64,000 nucleotides of DNA from NCBI GenBank assembly GCA_034521515.1, contig JAXHMH010000002.1, positions 24,379 to 88,378 on the forward strand, in the 5' to 3' direction. Under the pieces are notes generated by a model. That model worked only from the letters and a program-made list of their open reading frames with translations. It did no database searches and was not told where the DNA came from. Shown in pieces: positions 4,211-63,873 of this stretch. Position 1 is the stretch's first letter, and every line of letters starts with the position of its first letter. This DNA is from Candidatus Saccharimonadota bacterium. Lineage in GTDB: Bacteria > Patescibacteriota > Saccharimonadia > Saccharimonadales > JAXHMH01. The translations under genes were made by a program, and so were the position numbers.

Positions 4211-4477
4211 TCATTCTAAGCCAATGCCGTAATCACAGGCAACTGTTTCGGCGTTTACACCGTTAGTAACTTTATTAAAACCTTTGGCGTTAAGTAGCTG
4301 CTTTGCTACTTCTGAGCGATCACCAGTCCGGCAATACACCACGATATCAGTATCCTTATCAAGTGTCATAAGTTCTGCCGCGTTATCAAGCTCTAGCAGG
4401 GGTATATTAAACGCGCCAGTCGAGTGGCGCGTTTGGTATTCTTCTGGTTCACGCACATCAATTATCATCTTACTCAT
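4211..4477 (-). CDS. single-domain rhodanese-like sulfurtransferase
   Basis: IIDVREPEEYQTRHSTGAFNIP...VVYCRTGDRS active-site loop; 88 aa. Confidence 0.85.
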   Translation of the reverse strand: MSKMIIDVREPEEYQTRHSTGAFNIPLLELDNAAELMTLDKDTDIVVYCRTGDRSEVAKQLLNAKGFNKVTNGVNAETVACDYGIGLE

Positions 4478-4544
4478 GCATATAGTATAGAACGCCGCAG
4501 TATTCTGTGCTACGATGCGTAAGCCGTAAATTTACAATTAAAAA

Positions 4545-4642
4545 ATATCAAGAGAGTGGCAAGGGATCTGACCCGTTGACCCACCAGCAACCTAGCTTTT
4601 TGCAGCCAAGGTGCTACGTTCAGCCCTTTTCGGGGAAGATAT
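4545..4642 (+). promoter_or_regulatory. SAM-I (S-box) riboswitch aptamer upstream of metK
   Basis: ATATCAAGAGAGTGGCAAGGGATCTGACCCGTTGACCCACCAGCAACC...AAGGTGCTAC...GAAGATAT matches the S-box core (AUCAAGAG, AGGGA, GACCCG, AGCAACC, AAGGUGCUA) with P1 ATATC/GATAT; sits 60 nt before metK ATG. Confidence 0.85.
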
Positions 4643-4702
4643 CAGCACAACACGATGCTCCTTTATCGACCCGAATCAGGACAGATTAAAAGGAGTTTTT
4701 TC

Positions 4703-6673: not shown

Positions 6674-6827
6674 AAGTTTGGCAAAAAATCTGGTTGATAT
6701 GAGAGAAACTAGGCTGCAACACTTGTGATAATCATGCATACTTTTAAGTAGGCTTCTAATAAGAAGCTCTGTGTTTACGGCGAGCAGTAAAGACCGTAAA
6801 TATGCACCTAATAAAAGGGGAGGTTTC

Positions 6828-7961
6828 ATGGAATTAACACGTAAGAGCATACAAACTCTGCATAAAAGAACATCCGCCGGGCCTAAACTCAGCATTTACA
6901 TACCGACCCACCCAAAATCCAATAGTGCGTCGATTAACGAGGATAAAACTCGCCTCAAAAACGCCCTAAAAGCTATTGAAAACGACCCAAAATTCGACAA
7001 GCATGCTCATAAAAATATACTTAAGCCGCTTCATGACGTGCTTGATGATACGCAGTTCTGGAAGCACCAAGCTGTCGGGTTGGCACTGTTTGCCGATGCA
7101 AACGGCTTTGAGTTTATGCATTTGCCGCTTGAGCCGACCGAGGCTACGTATATTGATAAAGAGTTTGTCATCAGCCCGCTTATTATTATGCACAGCATAG
7201 CTACTGGGTTTTATGTACTAGACGTTAATTTATCCAGGGTTCGTTTACTAAAATCAGCTCATGGAACATTACATGAGATAGAAGACGCTCAATTACCAGA
7301 ATCATTCCAGGACAGGCTCGCTAACATGGAATATTCCTACGAGCTACAACACCAAGGCGCTCCAAAAGACAGCACTGGTAGTCGCGGTGATTTCCACGGG
7401 CATGAACCCGACGAAGCAATAGCAGACGATATCATAAAGTATTTACGTGATGTAGCTAGAGCAACTGATGCCTACTTATCCGGTCACGACAAACCGTTAT
7501 TACTAGCCGGAACCGAGAATAGAGTGGGTAATTTGCATAAATTTATCCACTACAAGCACACCCTGCCGCATGCTTTAACCGGCAATTTTGAGTCCCACAC
7601 GCCGCAGATGCTGCACGATGCAGCCACAGAAATCATCCAGCAACACCAGCAACATCAACGCGAGGAATTAGTGCAGAACTTGCTAGCAAGCGGCCCAGAA
7701 CACGTGGTCATGGGTCACTCCGAAATAACTGAAGCCGCTGCCGCCGATAGAGTTCAGCGACTGTACTTGCCAATTTTCCGTAATACCGCTGACAACGTAC
7801 GCACCGGCGATGTCCACTCTATCGTCTTGCAACTACCCAAAGCTATCAGCGAACTGGAATCAATGATTCGTTCGGTCATAAACCAAGCCGGCGAGGTGAT
7901 TGCCGTAGAGGTTGATGCCTATAAGGAGCTAGCCCAGCCCAAAGCCCTCTGCCGCTTTTAG
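6828..7961 (+). CDS. conserved hypothetical, resembles bacterial eRF1/Pelota-fold (baeRF-type) family
   Basis: Start at ATG 6828 after GGGGAGG. MELTRKSIQTLHKRTSAGPKLSIYIPTHP...TRLKNALK...DTQFWKHQAVGLALFADANGFEFMHLP...ISPLIIM...GFYVLDVNLSRVRLL follows the pattern I recall for baeRF-like proteins; not verifiable here. Confidence 0.55.
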   Translation: MELTRKSIQTLHKRTSAGPKLSIYIPTHPKSNSASINEDKTRLKNALKAIENDPKFDKHAHKNILKPLHDVLDDTQFWKHQAVGLALFADANGFEFMHLPLEPTEATYIDKEFVISPLIIMHSIATGFYVLDVNLSRVRLLKSAHGTLHEIEDAQLPESFQDRLANMEYSYELQHQGAPKDSTGSRGDFHGHEPDEAIADDIIKYLRDVARATDAYLSGHDKPLLLAGTENRVGNLHKFIHYKHTLPHALTGNFESHTPQMLHDAATEIIQQHQQHQREELVQNLLASGPEHVVMGHSEITEAAAADRVQRLYLPIFRNTADNVRTGDVHSIVLQLPKAISELESMIRSVINQAGEVIAVEVDAYKELAQPKALCRF

Positions 7962-13831: not shown

Positions 13832-13852
13832 AGAGTTTTTTAAGCGAAAAAT

Positions 13853-13878
13853 AAACGCGCCACTCGAGTGGCGCGTTT
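13853..13878. terminator. 26-bp palindrome family member (bidirectional terminator-like hairpin)
   Basis: aaacgcgccactcgagtggcgcgttt 22 nt after sortase stop; A-run/T-run arms. Confidence 0.5.
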
Positions 13879-14018
13879 ATTCCCCCTGCATCAAAAACAC
13901 AATAAAATACGTTCTTAACAATAGGAACATGCCAAGGTCAGACCTTGGCACAAAAAAAGATACAAGCTGTATCCTCGCTGCACAAGGAACGTCCTTGTAC
14001 AGTTTGTGGCACTAATTT

Positions 14019-14060
14019 CTGCACCCTACACCCTGAACCCTAAACCCTATACCCTATACC
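14019..14060. repeat. C-strand heptamer array (CCCTNNA)n, left flank of DUF1566 gene
   Basis: ctgcaccctacaccctgaaccctaaaccctataccctatacc; 14044-14060 is the exact reverse complement of 16118-16134. Confidence 0.9.
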
Positions 14061-14119
14061 TCAAACTGTCCACTGTTAACTGTAAACTATCCATTAAAAG
14101 ACCCGCATTGTCTCTTAGG

Positions 14120-15979
14120 CTAGCGTACCGGCCAGACGTAGTTGTTGAAGGTCTTGCCACGGGAGTTGGTGAGGCCGGCGCCCAGGTCTACGTGCCAGGC
14201 GTCAGACGTATTAGGAGCGTAGGTAGAAGACGACCAATACCAGGTGGGCACCAGACCAGAAAACGGATGGCCGACTGGGAGAGCTGGAGTAGAATGTTGG
14301 TGGCTCATAAGGCTGCGAAACTCACGGCGGCTTGGCAACCGCCAATCCCCAGCCACAGAGCCATCGGTAAGACTACAGCTTGCACTAGCTAGACCATTAG
14401 CGTCACTCAGGGCTTGTGTCCAGGTGCGTGTACCAAAACAGTTGGCGTCTTTGAGCCATATGAGCCCTGTCAGGTTGTCTGTCACTGTGCCATCACTGTT
14501 GTCAGTGAAGCGTGGGTCTGGCCATGCAAGACCCATCTGGTACTCACCATCTTGGCCAGTGCCAGCACAGGAGATGACGGTGCCACCTGCATCGTAGCAG
14601 GTATCTTGGCCGGTGGCAGCAGGTTGCGCTGGCCAGTCAGGTTCTACATCTGCAGCCGTTCCGGTTAAGTACCCCCACTCGCTACTGCATAACCCCCAGT
14701 AGGTCTGTCCGTCTAGGACATCACTTGGCTGAGCACAGTTGGTATCATCTACTGCTGGCATGACTCCCATGATGTCATTGAGGCTATACATGGTGGTGGT
14801 ACTTGGACCAGAAGTTGGACCAACAAAGCCGGTTTGGGTTAGTGCGGAGGTGCCGGTTGTAAGTCGGTTATAAATTTGGGTGAGGCTGGGCTTCTGTGAG
14901 GTAGGGCTATTTGGGCCGCTGGGTGGGGTGAGTTGAGCGTGGGCTACGCCACTGCGTGGCAGAAAACTCCCGAGCCGGGTCAGAAGTGAACGGTACCAAG
15001 TGGTAGAGCTAGCAAAGGCAGCATCTTCTAGGGTTGCTCCGCCATGACTGTTATCCATAGCAATATGGTCTGTGGGCGGATTGTGTGGCGCGAAAGCGAT
15101 ACTGGAGGTGCCACCGCGGACGGGCCAGACAGAGTGGTTGTTGGTCTTGCCGTAGTTTTCGGTGGTGCCATTATTATAGTACACAAACCAGGCACGAGAC
15201 GCATTCGGTACGTAGGTAGAAGACGACCAATAGTAGTAGTTTGTTACTACACCCGAAAACGGGTGGCCTGAGGGTATACGTGGTGCCGATGTTACACCTA
15301 AGTCTAGGAGTGATTCCAATTCATAAATGTTAGGCAACCGCCAATCCCCAGCCACAGAGCCATCCGTAAGACCACAACTTGCACTCGCGAGACCGTTAGC
15401 ATCACTCAGGGCTTGTTCCCAGGTGCGGGTACCAAAACAGTTAGCGTTCTTAAGCCATATCAGGCCAGTCAGGTTATCCGTCACGGTACCGTCAGCGTTA
15501 TCGGTAAAGCGTGGGCTGGCGGTTTCGCCCATTTGGTATTCCCCGTCTTGACCAGTGCCAGCACAGGATATAACACTACCAGCAGCGTCATAGCAGGTGT
15601 TTTGACCAGTAGCTGCGAGTCGAGCTGGCGAATTAAAGCTTGGGCCGAACCCACTGCCCGCGCACAAGCTCCAGTAGGTCGTACCGGGTATAACCTGGCT
15701 TGGCTCAGCACAATCCACGTCTGCTTCCGGCAACAGGCCGAACAGTTCATCCAGGCTGCACATTGGGGTGGTGTCGCCTGGGCCGGTGGTTGGTTCGGTG
15801 AAGGTTGCGACCATAGTACCGGCGGCTCCGGTTTCTAGGCGGTTGCATAGGTCATCTAGGGTGTAGCTTTGGCTGGATGGGTCGGTTGGTGGGGCTGGTG
15901 GGTTTAGGCTAGCAAACACGGCACCGCCGATACCAAGCAGTAGTACGGCAATCAGGATAGGGACTACCCGCTCGCCCAT
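14120..15979 (-). CDS. membrane-anchored surface protein with two tandem DUF1566 (Lcl C-terminal/C-type-lectin-like) domains
   Basis: N-terminal TM; twice repeated TGQ.TCYDA.G..ISCAGTGQDGEYQMG...RFTDN.DGTVTDNLTGLIWLK.ANCFGTRTW.QALSDANGLASASC.LTDGSVAGDWRLP...WSSSTY.PN...AW; visibly GC-richer than neighbours (not computed). Confidence 0.8.
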   Translation of the reverse strand: MGERVVPILIAVLLLGIGGAVFASLNPPAPPTDPSSQSYTLDDLCNRLETGAAGTMVATFTEPTTGPGDTTPMCSLDELFGLLPEADVDCAEPSQVIPGTTYWSLCAGSGFGPSFNSPARLAATGQNTCYDAAGSVISCAGTGQDGEYQMGETASPRFTDNADGTVTDNLTGLIWLKNANCFGTRTWEQALSDANGLASASCGLTDGSVAGDWRLPNIYELESLLDLGVTSAPRIPSGHPFSGVVTNYYYWSSSTYVPNASRAWFVYYNNGTTENYGKTNNHSVWPVRGGTSSIAFAPHNPPTDHIAMDNSHGGATLEDAAFASSTTWYRSLLTRLGSFLPRSGVAHAQLTPPSGPNSPTSQKPSLTQIYNRLTTGTSALTQTGFVGPTSGPSTTTMYSLNDIMGVMPAVDDTNCAQPSDVLDGQTYWGLCSSEWGYLTGTAADVEPDWPAQPAATGQDTCYDAGGTVISCAGTGQDGEYQMGLAWPDPRFTDNSDGTVTDNLTGLIWLKDANCFGTRTWTQALSDANGLASASCSLTDGSVAGDWRLPSRREFRSLMSHQHSTPALPVGHPFSGLVPTWYWSSSTYAPNTSDAWHVDLGAGLTNSRGKTFNNYVWPVR

Positions 15980-16097
15980 GAAGCTAAGTGTCTTTTTGGT
16001 AGCTGTGGCTAGTGTTTGTATTAACCGTTTGATAGTGGCTCCACTGTCTTGCTGTCTTACTGTCTTGCCTACTTGCTTATGGTAGGTAGTATAGCAG

Positions 16098-16245
16098 AGG
16101 GAAGGGCTAGGGTACAGGGTATAGGGTATAGGGTGTAGGGTGGAGACAGGGTTAAGGGTGAAGGGTTTAGGGTGGAGAGATTAGGATGAAATGTTCTGGG
16201 GTTTAGGGTTTAGGGTTGTGTGGGGGTATGGGGGCTAGGGGTTAG
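16098..16245. repeat. G-strand heptamer array (GGGTNNA)n with about 17 G-tracts, includes (TTTAGGG)2-3
   Basis: gggaagggctagggtacagggtatagggtatagggtgtagggtgg...gggttaagggtgaagggtttagggtgg...ggggtttagggtttagggttg...ggggtatgggggctaggggttag, about 120 nt upstream of the DUF1566 start codon. Confidence 0.9.
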
Positions 16246-21394: not shown

Positions 21395-24031
21395 TTAGCG
21401 GAGATGGATTACAGTCTCGTCTTCAGGTGGTTGCGGTTTATCGTTTGGGTTGGATGTGCCATCAGGGGGAGACGACTGAGCTCCGTCCTTATTCTTGCGC
21501 TTTCGGCGACGGCGACGCTTTTTCTTAGGTTTTTCCTCGGTATCATTAGTATTTTTATCGGTTTGCGGCGCATCTTTTAGGCCAGTAGCGACTTTAGCGA
21601 GCCGCTTGTTTAAATCTTCTTTACTGAGCGGGGCTTTCGGTTTTGTTGATCCTTCGGATGCTTCTTTCATTTCTGGCTTTTCTAATGAAGGGGTAGGGGG
21701 TTTTGGCGGTGCGCCGGCTTTCTTGGCAGCAGCCTTTTGTTGCTCGGTAGTTAAGTAACGGTCTTTCACAAATATCTCAATCTCATCACGGTCAACCGCA
21801 AACTGTTTACGGCTGTTGTCTATGATTGCAGAGCTATAATCGTCACCGTAATCTGGCAAATTAAGAGTTGTCGCCGAGAAAGCCTGAGCCTTCTCGCCGT
21901 CAATGGTCATACTCAATGCAAAATGCCGGTTATGCATATGAACAAGATCGTACTCTAAAAACTTTGGTTCAAAATAACGTTGCATTATCCGGGCGTCGTC
22001 GGCACTCATCCTAAAGCCAATAATCGAGCCGACGTTACCAAACACGGCGTCTTTTACGCTCAAACTCATCTGAGCTATATACTGGTTAGCGACAGTTAAA
22101 TTCAGACCGTATTTACGAGCCTCTGAAAGAATGGTCGCAAACGAGTCAGTGGCAAAATTTTGAAATTCATCAACATATAGATAAAACGGCAAACGTTCGT
22201 CAAGTGACACATCGGCACGGCTCATAGCGGCCATCTGTATTTTTGTCACCAAAAGTGCTCCAAGTAAGCTGGCATTATCTTCACCAATTAGCCCGCGGCT
22301 TAAGTTCACTATGAGTATCTTACGCTCATCCATAATCTTACGAATACTAAAGCTACTTTTTGGCTGGCCGATGATATTACGTACAATCGGGTTAGCCGTA
22401 AAGGCTCCAACCTTATTAAGTACCGGAGCTACAGCTTCAGCGGCAAATTTATCGTTCCAACTAGCAAACTCTACCAGCCAAAAATTCCGTACTACCGGAT
22501 CTTCTACATATTCCAAAACTTCGGCGCGAAATTTTTTGTCAGTTAGAATACGAGTAATATCCAGCATGGTTGCTTGCGGATAATCAAGTAGAGCCAGCAA
22601 GCTGTAGCGCAAAATATATTCCAGCCGTGGCCCCCAAGATTCAAACATTCTTTTAAGTACACCGATGAGTTCTGAGGTGGTATGCGTCTTAAGGGACTCA
22701 TCATACACTTCCATGGGGTTAAAGGCGATAGGGAAGTTTGTATCTGCAGGATTAAAGTAAATTACGTCATTGACGCGCTCTGGCGGAATACGTTTTAAGG
22801 TGTTTATAGCATAATCGCCGTGCGGATCAACCACCGCAAAACCGTACGGACTGTAAATATCCGATATAGTTAAGAGCTCGAGCATACCGGACTTACCAAC
22901 ACCGGTTTGACCAATAATGTATATATGACGCCCGCGATCAGACCGCGGCATGCCAAACATTGAATTATGACCGCGAAAATTAGTCACCGCAATCGGGCTA
23001 ACTTCGTCTCTGTTGTTGTCAGATACCAACGGTAGGTTAGCTGGCGGTTCAGCGGTAGTAGCATTGGCCCACAGTATGTTGGGAGTTTCTACGTTGGTAT
23101 GCGGCAGGTGATACAGACTAGCTACTTCCTCGATATTACAAATAAAACCAGTACCCTTAAAGGCTCGTCGTTTGTACAGATCTATCATTTTTTGATCGGC
23201 ACTTAGGTAACTTTGTTTAAAGCCGTTAAGATAGGTCGTATTAAATTGCTTAAAGCTTGCAGTAATCGCCTGGAAGCGCATTTTTGCCTGGCTGGTTGTC
23301 CCGTGGCCGCGATACACTACTCGCAAAGCAACGTCGTATGCCAGTTTCTGGCTCTTTTCTTCAGCCGCACTTGCTTTGGTAGTCTCATGCTCGGCTAGTT
23401 TGGCTGCCTGTCCGCCAGCTTTCGCCTCTGGGGGCGCCCACAAAGCAGAGGCTATTCCTGATGAGCCGCCACTAGCACCCTTGTTGCGAATACCGCCGGC
23501 AAACTTTTCACTTTTTTTATGCCAAGTCTCCGAGGCGGGTCTTAACACTACTTGCAGCCATGCTTCTTCATCTTCGTCGAATTGGGCTAAGGCAGCTGTA
23601 ATTGCTGCTAAGGGGTCTACCTCAAAACTCGGAAAGGTTTTAATCGGCAGCGCAGAGTTTGCAGATAGTTTTAATTCACCAACCAACTGGGCGGTAAAGT
23701 GAGCACCATCATCTTTAGAATAATCTTCAACTTCAGATATATGAACCGTTGGGTACTGTGCGTAAATCTGTTCCTCGACAAAGCTTTTTAGGTGATCAGG
23801 CACCCAAACATAAAAACCGATTCGCTTGGCTTTTACTGCAATTTCAAAACTAACTCGTTCGTGTACCGGCTTTTTAAACAAGCTTTTTTGCGCCGATGTT
23901 AAAAGGCCGTGCAGGCTGGCAAACATCTGCTCGGCTGCCAGCTCTTTCTTCTCGTTTGTTCGAGGCACTTGTAGCAGTAATACTGAACCAACGTTTACAG
24001 AAGCAGGGTCTTGCTGTTTCTTCAAAATCAT
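21395..24031 (-). CDS. VirD4/TraD/TraG-like (T4SS coupling-protein-type, HerA/FtsK-superfamily) ATPase with polybasic tail
   Basis: Walker A IIGQTGVGKSG, Walker B LPFYLYVDEFQNF, ...ARKYGLNLTVANQY; large N-terminal domain; tail EEKPKKKRRRRRKRKNK. Confidence 0.8.
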   Translation of the reverse strand: MILKKQQDPASVNVGSVLLLQVPRTNEKKELAAEQMFASLHGLLTSAQKSLFKKPVHERVSFEIAVKAKRIGFYVWVPDHLKSFVEEQIYAQYPTVHISEVEDYSKDDGAHFTAQLVGELKLSANSALPIKTFPSFEVDPLAAITAALAQFDEDEEAWLQVVLRPASETWHKKSEKFAGGIRNKGASGGSSGIASALWAPPEAKAGGQAAKLAEHETTKASAAEEKSQKLAYDVALRVVYRGHGTTSQAKMRFQAITASFKQFNTTYLNGFKQSYLSADQKMIDLYKRRAFKGTGFICNIEEVASLYHLPHTNVETPNILWANATTAEPPANLPLVSDNNRDEVSPIAVTNFRGHNSMFGMPRSDRGRHIYIIGQTGVGKSGMLELLTISDIYSPYGFAVVDPHGDYAINTLKRIPPERVNDVIYFNPADTNFPIAFNPMEVYDESLKTHTTSELIGVLKRMFESWGPRLEYILRYSLLALLDYPQATMLDITRILTDKKFRAEVLEYVEDPVVRNFWLVEFASWNDKFAAEAVAPVLNKVGAFTANPIVRNIIGQPKSSFSIRKIMDERKILIVNLSRGLIGEDNASLLGALLVTKIQMAAMSRADVSLDERLPFYLYVDEFQNFATDSFATILSEARKYGLNLTVANQYIAQMSLSVKDAVFGNVGSIIGFRMSADDARIMQRYFEPKFLEYDLVHMHNRHFALSMTIDGEKAQAFSATTLNLPDYGDDYSSAIIDNSRKQFAVDRDEIEIFVKDRYLTTEQQKAAAKKAGAPPKPPTPSLEKPEMKEASEGSTKPKAPLSKEDLNKRLAKVATGLKDAPQTDKNTNDTEEKPKKKRRRRRKRKNKDGAQSSPPDGTSNPNDKPQPPEDETVIHLR

Positions 24032-27091: not shown

Positions 27092-27502
27092 ATGCAGCAA
27101 GATACAACACCAACGCCTCAGCCACAAACCGGCAAATCAGTTCTTTGTATTGAGGATGAACATTTTATTGGCGAGCTATACACTCGTGCTCTTACACGCG
27201 CCGGCTATGAAATTAACGTGGTTATTGACGGAGTTGAAGGATTAAAAGAAGCCCAGACAAACAAATACGACATCATATTGCTCGATATGATGGTGCCGAA
27301 TTTGACCGGTTTTGAAATTTTGAAACGACTGCGCGATCCATCAATAACCCCTAAGTTGGATGGCAAAATTATCATCACCACCAACCTGGAGCAGGGTGAT
27401 GAAGCCAAAGCCGAGATAGAAAATCAAGCTGACGGTTACGTCGTTAAAGCTGAAATAACCCCAAAACAGCTCGTTAAGTTCCTCGACCAACTCGACACCT
27501 AA
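27092..27502 (+). CDS. single-domain response regulator (receiver only)
   Basis: VLCIEDEHF...DIILLDMMVPNLTGFE...IIITTN...VVKAE; 136 aa, no output domain. Confidence 0.9.
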   Translation: MQQDTTPTPQPQTGKSVLCIEDEHFIGELYTRALTRAGYEINVVIDGVEGLKEAQTNKYDIILLDMMVPNLTGFEILKRLRDPSITPKLDGKIIITTNLEQGDEAKAEIENQADGYVVKAEITPKQLVKFLDQLDT

Positions 27503-27545
27503 GCTCTTACTCTTAGAGTAAGTAACCTGATCACTTTTTGCATAA

Positions 27546-28082
27546 AAGCCAGCACTCCATCCTCCCCACTTTTGGCAGCAAAAGTAGGCAAAACTGCTGG
27601 GCTGCGTTTTTGCCTTGATGTATCTGTTGATACAAAACAGGCTCGCTGGTTCGTCTCTTTTTGCGGCGCAGCAGGCTTTGCCTGGTGGCAGGCAAAAAGG
27701 GAATGCTGTCGGAACTCCCCCTCACCATCTCTTTCGAGAGTGGTGAGGGGTCAGACAGCTCTCGCGCCCAAGGGCGCCTCTTTTACACAACATCTAGTCA
27801 GGACTTTGCAGAGCCAGACCCCGGAATGGCTTCGCCATTCCGGTTAATTATGTGTTCTTTAAAAAGAACACAACTAATGAGGGTCACATCTGAAAAACAG
27901 AAGCGAAGGAGTGCTGGTTGGACGAGTCAAGCCGGTAGTCAAGCTCCGCCAAAGTAACTAGAAAAACTGGCGGAGCCGCTTGTCGTTCTGCCGGCGCGGC
28001 CAACCAGTGCTGCTTCGTACTCTTGTTTTTTCAGTCGTGACGAGCTTTTTGGTTACTTTTTAGCGGACAAAAAGTAACAGGG
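27546..28082 (+). ncRNA. hairpin-dense repeat element, copy A (candidate large structured RNA; family unidentified)
   Basis: Paralog of 42629-43158; at least 8 hairpins plus an 18-bp long-range helix; compensatory differences between copies; G-U pairs valid only on + strand. As a repeat this is certain; as an RNA gene it is inference. Confidence 0.55.
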
Positions 28083-28127
28083 TATTTGATTCTTCCGGCC
28101 TTCGCAGTAGTAATGCTAATTCCCAGT

Positions 28128-28152
28128 ATTTCCAAGACCTGGTCTTGGAAAT
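28128..28152. repeat. 25-nt perfect palindrome atttccaagacc-t-ggtcttggaaat
   Basis: 12-bp arms; the same element (central base complemented) recurs at 31027-31050. Confidence 0.9.
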
Positions 28153-28246
28153 AGCTAGAATATTGTATAACTATCTTGTTGTTCGCTATGGCGGAGTAGG
28201 TTTGGAAAAGAAGGTTAACAGAAGCTTTCGTTTGTGGTGTTTTACT

Positions 28247-28272
28247 AAACGCGCCAGTCGTCTGGCGCGTTT
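28247..28272. terminator. 26-bp palindrome family member
   Basis: aaacgcgccagtcgtctggcgcgttt, 14 nt downstream of the minus-strand small gene 28286..28456. Confidence 0.5.
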
Positions 28273-28285
28273 ATTTTACAGGCTA

Positions 28286-28456
28286 TTAACGCTGCGTTGT
28301 TAGGTGATAGCCAAAACAAACAGGGCATTTGTAAACGCGGGTAGGCTTTTTAAGTTCTCGGGTAGGGTTGATCCGTTTTAGCGCGGCCTGAGCATCAGCG
28401 TCGCTACCAAACCTCCGCTTGCGCTTACACGCCACCTTTTCATTAATACTCGCCAT
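28286..28456 (-). CDS. small zinc-ribbon-like protein (56 aa; below ORF-track cutoff)
   Basis: Own translation: MASINEKVACKRKRRFGSDADAQAALKRINPTRELKKPTRVYKCPVCFGYHLTTQR; C..C/CPVC pairs. Confidence 0.45.
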   Translation of the reverse strand: MASINEKVACKRKRRFGSDADAQAALKRINPTRELKKPTRVYKCPVCFGYHLTTQR

Positions 28457-31001: not shown

Positions 31002-31026
31002 AACATACTATATAACATTATCCTTG

Positions 31027-31050
31027 TTTCCAAGACCAGGTCTTGGAAAT
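31027..31050. repeat. second copy of the ttccaagacc/ggtcttggaa palindrome
   Basis: tttccaagacc-a-ggtcttggaaat, 26 nt after the rlmH stop. Confidence 0.9.
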
Positions 31051-32242: not shown

Positions 32243-32327
32243 CCCGCATGATCTAGCGATGGTCATACTACTAGAGGCCATCTACCGCGGCAGCACTATA
32301 TCTGCTGGTCAGCCGTATCATAAATAG
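32243..32327 (+). pseudogene. detached second copy of the rlmH 3' end (last 28 codons plus stop)
   Basis: Encodes PHDLAMVILLEAIYRGSTISAGQPYHK* versus PHDLAMVILLEALYRASTVSAGQPYHK* at 30918-31001. By my codon comparison there are 12 synonymous and 3 replacement codon differences. No upstream rlmH body. Confidence 0.8.
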
Positions 32328-32346
32328 CTTTTTCGCCAACCAATCT

Positions 32347-32375
32347 AAAAACCCCACGCGAAAGGTGGGGTTTTT
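32347..32375. terminator. bidirectional intrinsic terminator-like hairpin
   Basis: aaaaaccccacgcgaaaggtggggttttt. Confidence 0.55.
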
Positions 32376-32378
32376 AGA

Positions 32379-32398
32379 TTGGTGACCTCACGGAGAAT
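32379..32398. repeat. 20-nt duplicate of the tRNA-Glu 3' end
   Basis: ttggtgacctcacggagaat at 32379-32398 is identical to 32523-32542. Confidence 0.9.
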
Positions 32399-32523
32399 AT
32401 TGAAATATAATCCGCCCGTTTGTCGCTAAAGCGACGGGGGATTAGCGAACTCTGGGGTTCGATTCGTCCGCCAGTCGACGGACCACCAAACAAAAACACC
32501 CACTCGGGGTGGGTGACTTTGTT

Positions 32524-32598
32524 TGGTGACCTCACGGAGAATCGAACTCCGATTTTCAGGATGAGAACCTGATGTCCTAACCGTTAGACGATGAGGCC
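32524..32598 (-). tRNA. tRNA-Glu (anticodon CUC), CCA encoded
   Basis: Minus strand GGCCTCATCGTCTAACGGTTAGGACATCAGG-TTCTCAT-CCTGAAAATCGGAGTTCGATTCTCCGTGAGGTCACCA. Confidence 0.9.
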
Positions 32599-32863
32599 AA
32601 ATTTCTAGTGATGCGGGCGAAAGTGTTTACATTTTCGCACATATCCGAGAAATTTGTGCCTGATACCTTAGTATAAGGCCTCGTATAGCTTCAGGCCGGG
32701 ACAGCTACTATTTATATTTACTGGCTGTCTCGGCTTCGGCATATAATCTCGCTAATCGCTCGATTATCAGAACCGACGGTCGGTTTCTGCAAAATACTAA
32801 CATATTTTGCTGTCACCCTCTGGTCGCTTTTTTACTTTCAACTTTCAACTTTATACTTGATAC

Positions 32864-40884: not shown

Positions 40885-40919
40885 ATATAAACCTATAAAT
40901 TATTATACTGTTATCTAAA

Positions 40920-40963
40920 AGAGCCTCAAGAGGGTGAAGATTGCCAGTGGCAATCTGCAAGGC
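40920..40963. repeat. 44-bp perfect direct repeat, copy 1
   Basis: gagcctcaagagggtgaagattgccagtggcaatctgcaaggcc; contains hairpin gattgcc-agt-ggcaatc. Confidence 0.95.
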
Positions 40964-41024
40964 CCATCCTTCCAGCGGAAAGACAGGTGGGGTCGCCAGA
41001 GGTGGTTGGGCACCCTAACTGAAA

Positions 41025-41068
41025 TGAGCCTCAAGAGGGTGAAGATTGCCAGTGGCAATCTGCAAGGC
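41025..41068. repeat. 44-bp perfect direct repeat, copy 2 (105-bp period)
   Basis: Identical to 40920-40963. Confidence 0.95.
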
Positions 41069-41258
41069 CGGAAGCCCGGATGGCATATGCCACCGAGCTG
41101 AGGTGGGGCCGACCGCATTTTCAAAGAAAATGACGGGTGGGGCTGGGCGCCTCAAATAAAAACAGGCTTCCAGAGGGGGTGGGCACCACTGGAAGCCTGA
41201 TTCCACCCTTCAAGCCCACCAGCGAAGCATCTAGCAACAACGTAAGACGTGCCGTGCC

Positions 41259-41317
41259 TCCCTCACCACTTTTTAAAGAAATAATTTTTTGGCCTATTTC
41301 ACTAAAAAGTGGTGAGG
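41259..41317. repeat. 16-bp perfect-stem hairpin sharing the CCCTCACCA/TGGTGAGGG arms of the 530-nt elements
   Basis: ccctcaccacttttta (41259-74) pairs with taaaaagtggtgaggg (41302-17); compare cccctcacca/tggtgagggg at 27718-50 and 42800-32. Confidence 0.8.
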
Positions 41318-41612
41318 GAATCTTTTGGACTCGCTTTGAAGTACAGATTATCACTCATGATAACCTGTGGGGTCTTAAAGGGGTTAGTTTGTTTTAGAAC
41401 GCTTTTTGCCGATAGAGCAAAGTGGAGGGTAACAACTTTGATACAGAATCCGAAGACTCCGCTATGGCGCGCTCTAAAACAATCTAACAACATAGTTCTA
41501 ACTTTTGCTGTTAGAATTGGGGGTATAAGGTACGTAAAATCCTATTTAGGACTTACGAATTGCTATTCTAGCAAGAATGTTGCCTTATGTCAATACTAAA
41601 AAACATTATTTT

Positions 41613-42479: not shown

Positions 42480-42628
42480 AGACTTGAGTATAGAGGGTAG
42501 AGTTCAAGAGCTTTGAAAGTAAAACCCTAAGCAATACAGATGTAAATACATATGTATTTTTGAATTTACATCTGTTATTCCCATGACACCTTTTTGTGAA
42601 TCTTCTTTCCTAAAGATACAAATATAAT

Positions 42629-43158
42629 AAGCCAGTACACCATCCTCCCCACTTTTGTCATCAAAAGTGGGCAAAACTGCTGGGCTGCGTTTTTGCCTTG
42701 ATGTATCTGTTGATACAGAACAGGCTCGCTGGTTTGTCTCTTTTGCGGCGCAGCAGGCTTTGCCTGGTGACAGGCAAAAAGGGAATGCTGTCGGAACTCC
42801 CCCTCACCATCTCTTTCGAGAGTGGTGAGGGGTCAAACAGTCCTCGCACCCGAGGGCGCCTCATTCTCACAACATCGCTTCAGGGTAAGCCGGAGCCAGA
42901 CCCCGGAATGGCCCGGGCCATTCCGGATAGATACGTGTTCTTTTAAAACACAGGTAACTAGGGTCACATCTGAAAAACAGAAGCGAAGCAGCGCTGGTTG
43001 GACGAGTCAAGCCAGCAGTCAGTCCCGAACAAACAAATAAAGAATGGTGAGGGACCGCTTGTCGTTCTGCTGGCGCGGCCAACCAGTGCTGCTTCGTGCT
43101 CTTGTTCTTTCAGCCGTGACGAGGTTTTGTACTACTTTTGGCAGGCAAAAGTAGTAGG
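42629..43158 (+). ncRNA. hairpin-dense repeat element, copy B (candidate large structured RNA; family unidentified)
   Basis: Paralog of 27546-28082 in the same orientation, between dprA and topA. Confidence 0.55.
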
Positions 43159-43232
43159 AGCATTTGCATCTCCCGGAAAAGAAGGCGACGGGTTTTATTT
43201 GCATTTTAGATAAAAGCCAAGTAGTCTAGCTT

Positions 43233-43324
43233 GTCGAGTAGTGAGCTTTCGTGTACATCACGGTTCCATAACCGTGATATTTAACTTTGCTCGAGCAAAG
43301 TTGCACGAAAGTCTACTACCCGAC
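43233..43324 (+). promoter_or_regulatory. three-way-junction structure in the topA leader (or 92-bp MITE with 21-bp TIRs)
   Basis: Outer stem gtcgagtagtgagctttcgtg / cacgaaagtctactacccgac (17 WC + 2 GU + 2 mismatches) encloses hairpins atcacggtt/aaccgtgat (43257-78) and the palindrome aactttgctcgagcaaagtt (43283-302); ends 37 nt before the topA ATG. Confidence 0.45.
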
Positions 43325-43360
43325 TTGCTGTTACCAACTAATGAGATACACTTATTGCTA

Positions 43361-45676
43361 ATGACTAAAAACCTGGTTATCGTCGAGTCCCCAGCTAAGG
43401 CCAAAACAATAGAAAAATACCTTGGTAAAGATTTCAGGGTATTATCTTCTGTTGGTCATATCCGTTCAATACCTAAAAAGGTTAAAGGCGGAGAAGAGCC
43501 CATTGATATAAACAATGGTTTCAAAACCCAGTACGAAGTAGACGCTGACAAGAAAAAGGTTATCACCCAGCTAAAAAAAGCTGTCAAAGAAGCCGACACT
43601 GTCTGGTTGGCGACTGATGAAGACCGCGAAGGGGAGGCAATAGCATGGCACTTGTGCGAAGTCTTAAAACTGGACCCAAAAACTACCAAGCGCATAGTTT
43701 TTCATGAAATAACCAAGCCAGCCATCGAGGAGGCAGTCAAAAATCCCCGTACAGTCGACATGAGCCTGGTGCAAGCACAACAGGCACGTCAGATATTAGA
43801 TCGTATTGTAGGGTTTGAATTGTCGCCGGTGGTCTGGCAAAAGGTACCTGGCGGTAAATCGGCTGGTCGTGTCCAGTCACCAGCTGTCAGGTTGTTAGTG
43901 GAGCGTGAACGAGAGATAGAGTCTTTTGAAGGATCGTTTTCTTTCAAGATAACCGCCGAATTTTCATCGGGTGATGACACTTTTAAGGCAGAATTACCTA
44001 AGCGATTTAATAGCGAGGGTGAAGCCAAGCAATTCTTAGAAAGCTTACTACGTGCATCGTTCAAAGTTAGCGATGTCAGCAAAACTCCAGCTACTCGTAA
44101 CTCCAGTGCGCCGTTTACAACCAGCACTTTGCAACAAGACGCCAACAGCAAACTCAACTTCGGTGCCAAGGCCACCATGGCTGCCGCTCAAAAACTATAT
44201 CAAGAAGGTAAAATCACCTATATGCGAACCGACTCGGTCAATCTGGGCGGCCAAGCGCTTTCACAAATAACTCATTATGTAACTAAGACTTACGGTGAAG
44301 AATATCATCAGATTCGCACCTACAAGACCAAATCATCTGGCGCTCAGGAGGCTCACGAAGCAATTCGCCCAACCGATATTAGCCTAGAGTCAGCCAGCGA
44401 TGACTCTTATGCACAGAAGCTTTACGACCTTATTCGCCGTCGCACGCTAGCCAGCCAAATGGCTCCAGCCAAGCTTGAAAAAACTGTCGTAACCATTGCA
44501 ATATCCAGTAGCAAGGAAGCTTTTGAGGCCAAGGGCGAAGTTATTGTTTTTGACGGCTTCTTGAAAGTATACGGCGGCAATAAAAAAGAAGATACCATAT
44601 TGCCATCTGTTAAGTCAGATGATGTGCTATCTCTTGATTCAGCAACTGCCAAACAAGTCTTTGCTCGACCACCAGCTAGGTACACCGAAGGTAGTTTGGT
44701 CAAAAAGCTAGAAGAACTTGGTATTGGCCGACCATCAACTTATGCAACTATTATCAACACCATACTGACGCGAGGTTACGCCGAAAAAGGCGAGACAGAG
44801 GGCGAACCAAGGGAAGTCATTGTTTTAAACCTGGCTAAAAACGACGTATCGAGGGAAGTCGTTGAAGAAAAGACCGGATCCGACAAGGGCAAGTTAGTGC
44901 CAACTACCAGTGGCCGCGTGTTAAGCGATTTTTTGCACAAACACTTTGACCAAATTGTCGATTATGGCTTTACGGCGGATGTTGAAGCCGATTTTGATAA
45001 AATCGCCACCGGCAAATTAGAGCGCAACAAAATGCTTGAGGAGTTTTATAAGCCATTCCATGAGCTTATAGAGCAATCTGGCGGTATTGATCGTGCCTCC
45101 GTTGCGCAGGCGAGGGAAGTCGGCATTGACCCTAAGACTGACAAGCCAGTGCTGGCTCGTTTGGGCAGATATGGTCCAATGTTGCAACTCGGCGCGACTG
45201 AGGATAAAACAGATAAGCCGCGCTTTGCCCCGATGCCAAAGGGTGCCAAAGTAGAGACCGTCACGCTTGAGCAAGCACTTAAAGCGTTTGAATTACCGCG
45301 CATTGTCGGTCAGACCGATGACGGTAAAGATATCAAAGCAAACATAGGTCGCTTCGGCCCGTATATCCAGGTAGATAAACTTTTTGTGAGCATTAAACCC
45401 CGCGATCCGCACACCATTACGCTCGATGAGGCCAAAGAACTCTACGCCGCCAAGCTTAAAGCCGAGGCAGAGAAGCACATTGCAGAATTTGGCGACATTA
45501 AGGTACTTAACGGCCGGTTTGGCCCATATGTGACCGATAGCAAAAAGAATGCCAAGATCCCCAAAGACACCGATCCTAAAAAACTAACAGAATCAGACGC
45601 CAAGAAACTGCTCGCTGAAGCCCCAGCCAAGAAACGCGGGGGCTTCAAGCGCCGCGCCACAAAGTCCAAGAAATAA
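43361..45676 (+). CDS. topA: DNA topoisomerase I
   Basis: MTKNLVIVESPAKAKTIEKYLG (TOPRIM)...LATDEDREGEAIAWH...ITYMRTDS (active-site Tyr)...basic tail; start moved to ATG 43361. Confidence 0.95.
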   Translation: MTKNLVIVESPAKAKTIEKYLGKDFRVLSSVGHIRSIPKKVKGGEEPIDINNGFKTQYEVDADKKKVITQLKKAVKEADTVWLATDEDREGEAIAWHLCEVLKLDPKTTKRIVFHEITKPAIEEAVKNPRTVDMSLVQAQQARQILDRIVGFELSPVVWQKVPGGKSAGRVQSPAVRLLVEREREIESFEGSFSFKITAEFSSGDDTFKAELPKRFNSEGEAKQFLESLLRASFKVSDVSKTPATRNSSAPFTTSTLQQDANSKLNFGAKATMAAAQKLYQEGKITYMRTDSVNLGGQALSQITHYVTKTYGEEYHQIRTYKTKSSGAQEAHEAIRPTDISLESASDDSYAQKLYDLIRRRTLASQMAPAKLEKTVVTIAISSSKEAFEAKGEVIVFDGFLKVYGGNKKEDTILPSVKSDDVLSLDSATAKQVFARPPARYTEGSLVKKLEELGIGRPSTYATIINTILTRGYAEKGETEGEPREVIVLNLAKNDVSREVVEEKTGSDKGKLVPTTSGRVLSDFLHKHFDQIVDYGFTADVEADFDKIATGKLERNKMLEEFYKPFHELIEQSGGIDRASVAQAREVGIDPKTDKPVLARLGRYGPMLQLGATEDKTDKPRFAPMPKGAKVETVTLEQALKAFELPRIVGQTDDGKDIKANIGRFGPYIQVDKLFVSIKPRDPHTITLDEAKELYAAKLKAEAEKHIAEFGDIKVLNGRFGPYVTDSKKNAKIPKDTDPKKLTESDAKKLLAEAPAKKRGGFKRRATKSKK

Positions 45677-62838: not shown

Positions 62839-62943
62839 AGGGCTCCCCTTTGCTCATTTTATTACTATTTATTTACCACGTTGCTGGGTTTCAAGGCAAC
62901 ACTATTTATTAACCACTTTTTAATAACAACCTGTCCTTATTAT

Positions 62944-62969
62944 TAAACGCGCCACTCGACTGGCGCGTT
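62944..62969. terminator. 26-bp palindrome family member
   Basis: aaacgcgccactcgactggcgcgttt in the divergent gap 62839-63129. Confidence 0.4.
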
Positions 62970-63129
62970 TAGCGTTTGTGCTGCACAGACTCCAAATAGC
63001 ATGTGTTTTTGTTTTAGATTTATACTGAATACGCAAGCCGGCTTTCGTATTCAAGAACTCAGCGTCGCCTTATACAGTAAAAAGCTTCTGCTTTGTGAAT
63101 ACTTATTTGAGAGATACAATACTCGCATT

Positions 63130-63771: not shown

Positions 63772-63820
63772 AAACTCATGTCAGCCTATGACTTGAAATA
63801 TATAACTCTGTGTTACCACT

Positions 63821-63846
63821 AAACACGCCAGTCGACTGGCGCATTT
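63821..63846. terminator. 26-bp palindrome family member (degenerate)
   Basis: aaacacgccagtcgactggcgcattt between convergent genes. Confidence 0.45.
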
Positions 63847-63873
63847 CAGTTTTATGCCTAACGTAAACTCGAT

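Follow-up and report, generated by a model that had tools for sequence, protein, structure and literature searches.

Saccharibacteria are ultra-small episymbionts with stripped-down genomes. Beyond the universal set, large and intricately folded RNAs are seldom encountered in bacteria; OLE, ROOL, GOLLD, and the HEARO/omega RNAs each led to unexpected biology. Against this background, a 64,000-nt stretch of contig JAXHMH010000002.1 from a Candidatus Saccharimonadota bacterium (assembly GCA_034521515.1), referred to here as the window, raises a question: what is the ~550-nt, hairpin-dense, non-coding element that it contains twice? The original prediction was an unclassified large structured RNA read from the + strand. 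Part of that view is upheld by the analyses described below, in that the element is non-coding, structured, and without an Rfam family, whereas the argument for the + strand fails and no conserved promoter or terminator marks out a discrete transcript. It is probably a structured entity of one of two kinds, a functional RNA or a mobile element. The reading favored here, with a probability of roughly 0.4, is a large structured RNA that is restricted to one lineage and has a mobile origin. The existence of the element is confirmed; it is unclassified and, in a genome of 0.7 Mb, unusual. Yet it is a two-copy orphan, and the claim is provisional.

Two copies of one intergenic element

Copy A comprises 553 nt (27546..28098, + strand) between the stop codon of a receiver-only response regulator gene (27502) and a bidirectional terminator (28246-28273). 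Copy B comprises 548 nt (42629..43176, + strand) between the dprA stop codon (42479) and the structured leader of topA. In an end-to-end alignment, the two share a global identity of 83%, with 85 substitutions and 7 indel columns, which verifies the paralogy, the common orientation, and the coordinates that had been proposed. Both copies lie in sense just 3′ of + strand genes, with no strong terminator in between; the distance from the upstream stop codon, predicted to be 45-150 nt, measures 44 nt for A and 150 nt for B. The element starts with AAGCCAG and finishes with CCGG (...TCTYCCGG), although homology may begin 4 nt earlier, including a common ATAA. The flanks of the two copies are unrelated, and the element boundaries are sharp.

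Divergence between the copies is distributed unevenly, the conserved blocks being 93-100% identical. Identity amounts to 87-100% across 27543-27752 and in the stems of the 3′ domain and to 53-60% in three variable blocks (27783-27812, 27932-27961, and 28052-28081), which are adjoined by blocks of 60-150 nt that are 100% identical. The substitution spectrum is mixed, with transitions at 48 of the 85 positions and changes in all directions. Given this spectrum, the intergenic location of both copies, and the absence of a reverse transcriptase, a pair belonging to a diversity-generating retroelement was rejected.

No third copy was detected in the 64-kb window by a repeat search, by nhmmer with all filters off (--max), or by a covariance model of the 3′ domain; the latter two also returned nothing from the masked window or from the corresponding loci of relatives. 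In the sequencing sample SRR26473340, two independent Logan contigs carrying the flanking genes end 50-70 nt into copy A or B (L001, 4698-4751; L013, 1590-1660). Such stops are consistent with an assembler meeting a repeat, and thus with the element being repeated in this sample too. The same sample contains a second Saccharibacteria genome (L017, equal to GCA_034520885.1).

A protein-coding gene was rejected on the basis of a 1-nt indel at 27658 and of loop indels that shift every frame between the copies, in line with the earlier remark that the open reading frames (ORFs) across the element are not kept in frame. A 98-aa ORF had 0 matches in an exhaustive phmmer search of 1.84 billion representatives, a 65-aa minus-strand ORF had no relative in a word-index protein search, and the sole match to a 91-aa ORF of copy A was the annotated 57-aa ORF of copy B (U5K77_00410).

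The 15 kb that separate the copies have unremarkable GC content and hold dinB, a SPOUT methyltransferase gene, a tRNA, a histidine kinase/response regulator pair, rluA, der, pth, and dprA, with no integrase among them. The order rluA-der-pth-dprA-topA is the same in five relatives. Because the interval is core and syntenic with relatives, the copies do not represent the attL/attR attachment sites of an island or prophage. A guide-RNA array of the CRISPR or TIGR type was also considered. TIGR arrays feature periodic repeat/spacer units and an adjacent Nop-domain (Tas) gene (PMC12045711). Tandem Repeats Finder (TRF) detected no periodicity in the element, and the window encodes neither a Cas nor a Nop-domain protein, so that this candidate was discarded as well.

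The fold and its divergence between the copies

Both copies fold much more stably than dinucleotide-preserving shuffles, with minimum free energy (MFE) z-scores of -10.2 (A) and -9.7 (B) for the + strand and -7.7 and -8.2 for the - strand. In a scan of the 64 kb with a sliding fold of 150 nt, no other stretch had as many strongly folding segments in succession as the two copies.

The differences between the copies tend to preserve helices, as had been predicted. Copy B has an MFE of -241 kcal/mol, compared to -195 +/- 8 kcal/mol for mutants of A with 85 substitutions at random positions. Such mutants lose about 45 kcal/mol, whereas B keeps the full folding energy; 0 of 120 reach the value of B (z -5.6), and the reverse test gave z -6.8. 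In a stricter control, in which the substituted positions were fixed and only the bases randomized, the mutants averaged -222 to -225 kcal/mol, 1-2 of 120 reached B, and the z-score of B was -2.2 to -2.4 (about -2.3). Because fixing the positions shrinks the effect, energy retention is due mostly to the placement of the substitutions, which affect 11.5% of paired but 25.8% of unpaired positions. A smaller, real part comes from the choice of substituted bases. Selection very probably acts on the element to preserve its fold.

Five parts make up the structure, all described here for the + strand: a cluster of hairpins at the 5′ end, a multi-branch domain in the center, a pair of short perfect hairpins, an irregular hairpin of 160 nt, and a hairpin at the 3′ end. 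The 5′ subterminal hairpin of A (CCCACUUUUG-GCAG-CAAAAGUAGG, 27565..27588) contains one C.A mismatch; its counterpart in B (42648-42671) pairs perfectly and has a different loop. In the consensus fold of A and B, the central domain (27646..27817) is closed by CUGGUUC (27646-27652) pairing with GAGCCAG (27811-27817), and inside it are a helix CUCUUUUUGC.../...GCAAAAAGGGA and a variable linker (27753-27812). A hairpin with a perfect 10-bp arm, CCCCUCACCA...UGGUGAGGGG (27718..27750), is unchanged in B (42800-42832). The hairpin CCGGAAUGGC-UUC-GCCAUUCCGG (27821..27843) has the same stem and another loop in B (42903-42926), and its retention in both copies had been recognized from the start.

The 3′ domain forms one long irregular hairpin of ~160 nt (27884..28045 in A, 42964-43124 in B). 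In A, its 18-bp helix (27904-27921/28000-28017) is interrupted by one G.G mismatch and includes two G.U pairs; in B, the mismatch is mended and one G.U pair is converted to C-G, which confirms the repair noted initially. A nested helix (27931-27938/27988-27995) shows the double compensatory change expected from the original prediction, with G-C altered to A-U and U.G to C-G. The internal loops ACGAGUCAA (27922-27930) and CGCUUGUCGUU (27977-27987) are invariant while the helix between them alters by these compensatory substitutions. At the apex, the hairpin GCUCCGCCA/UGGCGGAGC of A (27943..27976) corresponds to an unrelated GUCCC/GGGAC hairpin in B (43022-43055). The 3′ subterminal hairpin of B (UACUACUUUUG-GCAGG-CAAAAGUAGUA, 43130-43156) differs in a compensatory manner from that of A (GUUACUUUUU-AGCGGAC-AAAAAGUAAC, 28052..28078). 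Hence, the apical, 5′, and 3′ hairpins vary in sequence and nonetheless fold in both copies, as proposed, and more generally each of the three unalignable blocks is a hairpin in both copies at the same position. An alternative pairing of 27549-27561 with 27905-27917, present in A, was rejected, since it is not maintained in B.

Viewed locally, the element is a string of perfect 9-14-bp hairpins. A simple model would be a cis-acting mosaic of palindromic units, similar to REP/BIME sequences at operon 3′ ends, which would act as a transcription attenuator, an insulator, a stabilizer of mRNA 3′ ends, or a cluster of protein-binding hairpins. Both copies do follow + strand genes, and related modules recur: stems of the CUUUU(U)G...CAAAAG type occur at both element ends, inside (27654-27702), and just left of A (27533-27548), and a stem formed by CCCUCACC and GGUGAGGG is found again at 41260-41318 and in a relative (L006). 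Midway, copy A also contains a terminator-like hairpin plus a U-run (27764-27785). That site, however, is not maintained in B, the hairpin modules are not dispersed across the window, and the complete 550-nt arrangement was copied as one unit rather than shuffled. REP/BIME, ERIC, BOX, RUP, and Correia-type repeats are likewise hairpin-rich, non-coding, located after genes, and built of recurring modules, but with a length of 30-300 nt they are shorter, number from tens to hundreds of copies, and amount to a single hairpin or a simple mosaic. The element is one 550-nt unit seen twice, with long-range closing helices and invariant loops that far exceed the known elaboration of REP/BIME sequences. 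A mosaic of this kind is an unlikely explanation.

Could the element instead belong to an already described class (group I or II introns, 6S RNA, OLE, ROOL, GOLLD, HEARO, RNase P RNA, or tmRNA, for example) and have diverged too far to be recognized? The comparison with Rfam that had been suggested as a check was carried out with cmscan and the 4227 covariance models of Rfam 15. At gathering score, the whole window yielded just three tRNAs and a SAM riboswitch. A permissive rerun on both copies (E up to 10) returned only miRNA and small RNA models at chance level, the best of which had E 0.13 and 20 bits against thresholds of 40-100. No Rfam 15 family therefore explains either copy at gathering or permissive thresholds. 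A group II intron was rejected for want of an Intron_gpII or group-II-D1D4 match at E up to 10 and by the two ends, the 5′ one reading AAGCC and not GUGYG and the 3′ one CCGG and not AY; a group I intron or IStron was rejected for want of an RF00028 match at the same limit. ARAGORN found no tmRNA in the element.

In size and hairpin density, the element is comparable to the large "ornate" bacterial RNAs. With OLE, ROOL, GOLLD, HEARO, and raiA it shares the size class of ~500-800 nt, many hairpins, a multi-domain fold, and conserved internal loops alongside variable peripheral stem-loops; those families, too, are often associated with mobile DNA, and some occur in more than one copy per genome. 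In contrast to them, it has no Rfam 15 match and unusually perfect hairpins, and whereas those families are defined by hundreds of covarying homologs, this one is represented by two copies in one genome. The 160-nt irregular 3′ hairpin with its internal loops is reminiscent of 6S RNA, which in some bacteria has two paralogs per genome; but it lacks a large central bubble, has no Rfam 6S match at E up to 10, and makes up a third of the element. Taken together with the gathering-score result, the permissive E-values of at least 0.13, the ARAGORN result, and the 5′ end, a known class that was missed is highly improbable. A survey of the literature on structured RNAs of Saccharibacteria or Patescibacteria found nothing relevant.

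Distribution, possible mobility, and strand

Where did the element come from? Apart from the window's own DprA, the closest match in 5.8 billion protein clusters reaches only 66% identity, so that no close relative is known. Collecting further homologs, which had been recommended as the way forward, produced none in any collection searched. An exact DNA pattern of the two invariant loops gave 4 chance matches in the one scan made of 185,579 species genomes, all in unrelated phyla and dismissed on reading, and nothing in IMG/VR. Conserved blocks were also translated into a "pseudo-protein" from which several degenerate 24-nt seeds were derived; the multi-seed search found nothing in JGI metagenomes or IMG/VR, and the single seed-search match (L014) was a chance match to a phage structural gene. 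blastn against phage and plasmid collections found no relative. It is important to note that these searches need near-exact identity over 11-24 nt, and a family that has diverged as far as the host proteins (~65% amino-acid identity) would therefore escape them.

The relatives are informative with respect to the insertion site. The element is missing near dprA in all five that were examined (62-65% DprA identity), and two of them, L006 and L007, separate dprA from topA by a short spacer (226 and 292 nt) that shows no structure (z +1.0 and +1.9). For these reasons, copy B is a lineage-specific insertion of a discrete unit into the dprA-topA spacer. This sign of a mobile origin was overlooked in the original prediction, as was a second one: the hairpins at the two ends are of one motif. 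Apart from one inserted G, the 3′ hairpin of B is the 5′ hairpin of A (ACUUUUGGCAG-CAAAAGUAG).

A miniature inverted-repeat transposable element was rejected, as the element ends are not complementary and the flanks carry no duplication. The same features, no terminal inverted repeats and no target duplication, fit a non-autonomous transposable element of the "palindrome-associated" IS200/IS605 type that moves as single-stranded DNA. According to this explanation, the subterminal hairpins would be transposase sites, the interior would possibly be guide-RNA-like, and the fold would serve mobility rather than the host. In agreement with it, there is a hairpin at a distance of ~20 nt from each end, the two being on one strand and sharing the motif ACUUUUGGCAG(G)CAAAAGUAG; between the 5′ hairpin of A (ACTTTTGGCAGCAAAAGTAG, 27568-27587) and the 3′ hairpin of B (ACTTTTGGCAGGCAAAAGTAG), 20 positions match around the single inserted G. 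Both copies have the same orientation, and the insertion in the dprA-topA spacer is missing from L006 and L007. ATAA ends both left flanks with a 1-nt offset (A: ATAA\|AAGCC; B: ATAA\|TAAGCC), although this match is weak, needs the offset, and with two copies has a chance level of a few percent. The folding of single-stranded DNA (z about -10.3 for either strand) and wobble pairs devoid of a strand signal, both described below, also fit such an element.

Other observations are at odds with an IS200/IS605-type element. A Pfam search of the 64-kb window revealed no transposase, TnpB, IscB, or reverse transcriptase, and the visible copies number just two. Variation is greatest in the terminal hairpins and conservation is greatest in the interior, the opposite of what decaying transposon copies should show. 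Neither HEARO nor any other Rfam family matches, and the phage, plasmid, and viral collections hold no relative. Compared to known non-autonomous IS200/IS605 elements and their guide RNAs, the element is similar in lacking inverted terminal repeats and target duplications and in its similar one-strand subterminal hairpins, structured non-coding interior, and intergenic insertion; it differs in its larger size, in termini that are less conserved than the interior, and in having no TnpA or TnpB in the window. Such an element is the main rival reading, somewhat less probable than the structured RNA.

Several points weigh against a structured RNA of the host. Concerning conservation, none of the collections searched, from species-representative genomes, JGI metagenomes, and IMG/VR to phages, plasmids, and 5.8 billion protein clusters, yielded a homolog. 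An important host RNA would be expected at least in sister lineages, although the nearest relative known shows no more than 66% DprA identity. Only two sequences exist, which precludes statistical covariation. Concerning mobility, similar hairpins at both ends and an insertion-like behavior suit a transposable element. Concerning the fold itself, many hairpins are perfect 9-14-bp palindromes, which are commoner in DNA repeats and terminators than in ribozyme-like RNAs; template-directed correction in quasi-palindromes could produce compensatory changes without selection on an RNA, and patchy gene conversion between the copies could yield the block pattern of identity.

The last two processes, acting on a duplicated palindrome-rich spacer, might leave behind a neutral relic. 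Blocks of 60-150 nt with 100% identity next to blocks with 53-60% match the outcome of patchy conversion, G.U and A.C arise at equal frequency from changes in pairs, and no conservation was found beyond the present genome. Neutrality, however, does not account for substitutions that avoid stems, for unalignable blocks that remain hairpins at the same positions in both copies, or for a total folding energy that is wholly retained. Furthermore, a streamlined genome of ~0.7 Mb would be expected to shed 1.1 kb of DNA that had been inserted among core genes and served no purpose. A relic of this sort is improbable, somewhat more so than the palindromic mosaic.

The points that remain on the opposing side concern the strand and the nature of the molecule. 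The G-U pairs had been taken as an argument for a + strand RNA. Among changes on one side of a predicted pair, eight lead to G.U on the + strand and six to A.C; as an A.C on the + strand is a G.U on the - strand, these numbers nearly balance, there is no strand signal, and the argument falls. The MFE structures even contain more G.U pairs on the minus strand (15 and 18) than on the plus strand (10 and 10). With DNA parameters, single-stranded DNA folds alike on both strands (z -10.3 and -10.4). The only support for the + strand is an RNA MFE that is 7-15 kcal/mol lower. Folding energy gives no signal for RNA over single-stranded DNA. Nor do A and B have a promoter or a canonical terminator in common: B is preceded by a perfect TATAAT (42623-42628) with no -35 element and A by a weak TCGACA/TAGAGT (27492-27519), and the 3′ hairpin of the element lacks a U-run. 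A canonical bidirectional terminator is located ~150 nt downstream of A (28246-28273), while B runs into the structured topA leader.

Based on these data, a structured RNA of mobile origin could operate as follows. Selection would keep the fold of the ~550-nt element as a multi-domain hairpin structure, and its product would most likely be a + strand RNA. Because the copies share no promoter, transcription would proceed together with the upstream genes, the histidine kinase/response regulator operon in the case of A and dprA in the case of B. The RNA may remain a structured 3′ untranslated region or intercistronic module; alternatively, processing may release a large, stable non-coding RNA with the role of a scaffold for bound proteins. 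The element came to at least one of its sites by a copy-and-insert event, with B interrupting the dprA-topA spacer. A bolder version is conceivable, but only tentatively so: the element may be the founding member of a new class of ~550-nt structured RNAs, encoded by a self-contained, mobile non-coding RNA gene that spreads as one discrete unit in a deep-branching, so far unsampled Saccharibacteria lineage. The end hairpins of the same type would then be signals for processing or mobility, and the invariant loops sites for binding proteins or RNAs.

These readings overlap, since a mobile element can carry a functional RNA. More generally, the maintenance of 1.1 kb of structured non-coding DNA near genes of DNA uptake and repair (dprA, topA, and dinB) suggests some role. 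If the element acts as an RNA, it would join a very small number of structured RNAs that are peculiar to the candidate phyla radiation; if it is the relic of a hairpin-ended transposon, it would document single-strand transposition in the phylum.

A second RNA candidate and other features of the window

A second, non-coding region of ~400 nt lies upstream of dprA and divergent from it (41153-41560, minus strand). In contrast to the 550-nt element, it is kept in five relatives (L006, 4310-4953; L007, 4464-4938; L010, 4427-4938; L015, 2300-2830; L016, 2453-2965). It has a conserved sigma-70 promoter (TTGACA-17-TGcTAGAAT, 41593-41565), the invariant blocks UGUUAGAUUGUUUUAGAG, AAGUUGUUACCCUCCACUU, and CUCUAAAACA, and a terminator hairpin with a conserved loop. 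An 18-bp helix and others show compensatory changes, with two-sided changes at 19 of 54 predicted pairs, and there is no match in Rfam 15. The region may harbor a new RNA gene of Saccharibacteria that carries variable hairpin insertions, and as a candidate it is better supported than the 550-nt element.

The two are connected by the CCCUCACC/GGUGAGGG stem, which is found in both copies of the element (27718-27750 and 42800-42832), at 41260-41318 of the window, and at 4877-4939 of L006. In the dprA-upstream RNA it is a variable insertion, placed at another position in the RNA of L006, and the hairpin looks like a recurrent module. Nearby, two 48-nt direct repeats that are 98% identical and 105 nt apart (40917-40964 and 41022-41069) resemble the terminator module of the dprA-upstream RNA (AAAAGAGCCUCnAGAGGG...).

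Further features surround copy A. A 56-aa protein with a C...CxxC...H motif (…RVYKCPVCFGYHLT…) is encoded ~190 nt from the copy on the minus strand (28286-28456); it matches no Pfam family, and a 67%-identical homolog in L006 (5923-6060) lies between dprA and topA, at the position that copy B holds here. Inverted repeats of 42 nt (28128-28169 and 31009-31050; 83% complementary), each with a perfect palindrome TTTCCAAGACC(T/A)GGTCTTGGAAA, flank a 2.9-kb block of small genes, dinB, and the SPOUT methyltransferase gene and may be operator sites. A 32-nt palindrome (TAAACGCGCCAGTCG..TGGCGCGTTTA) that is bordered on both sides by A-runs and T-runs is present in five copies (4404-4435, 13848-13879, 28242-28273, 62940-62971, and 63816-63847) and represents a reused bidirectional terminator or a short dispersed repeat.

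Downstream of copy B, the topA leader (43190-43361) forms a three-way junction composed of GUCGAGUAGUGAGCUUUCGUG/CACGAAAGUCUACUACCCGAC and two hairpins, with z -3.2 for 43201-43350 in the 150-nt sliding scan. The true start of topA is likely the ATG at 43362 (MTKNLVIVESPAK) and not the GTG at 43241. Between the two copies, a strongly folding region (32250-32800) surrounds the tRNA-Glu gene (32524-32598, minus strand), and a 35-nt partial duplicate of the end of this gene (32364-32398 versus 32508-32542) may be an integration scar.

The remaining observations come from the part of the window upstream of copy A. The SAM riboswitch (4542-4645) is located upstream of metK, and 6771-7961 encodes a bacterial homolog of the archaeo-eukaryotic release factor (baeRF). 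A 619-aa protein with Lcl_C domains contains an internal tandem duplication of ~1 kb that is 85% identical (14018-16188) and is flanked by inverted runs of CCCTAnA-type heptamers (14018-14061 and 16103-16188). Finally, an 878-aa protein that resembles a type IV secretion coupling protein is encoded at 21395-24031, 3.5 kb upstream of copy A.

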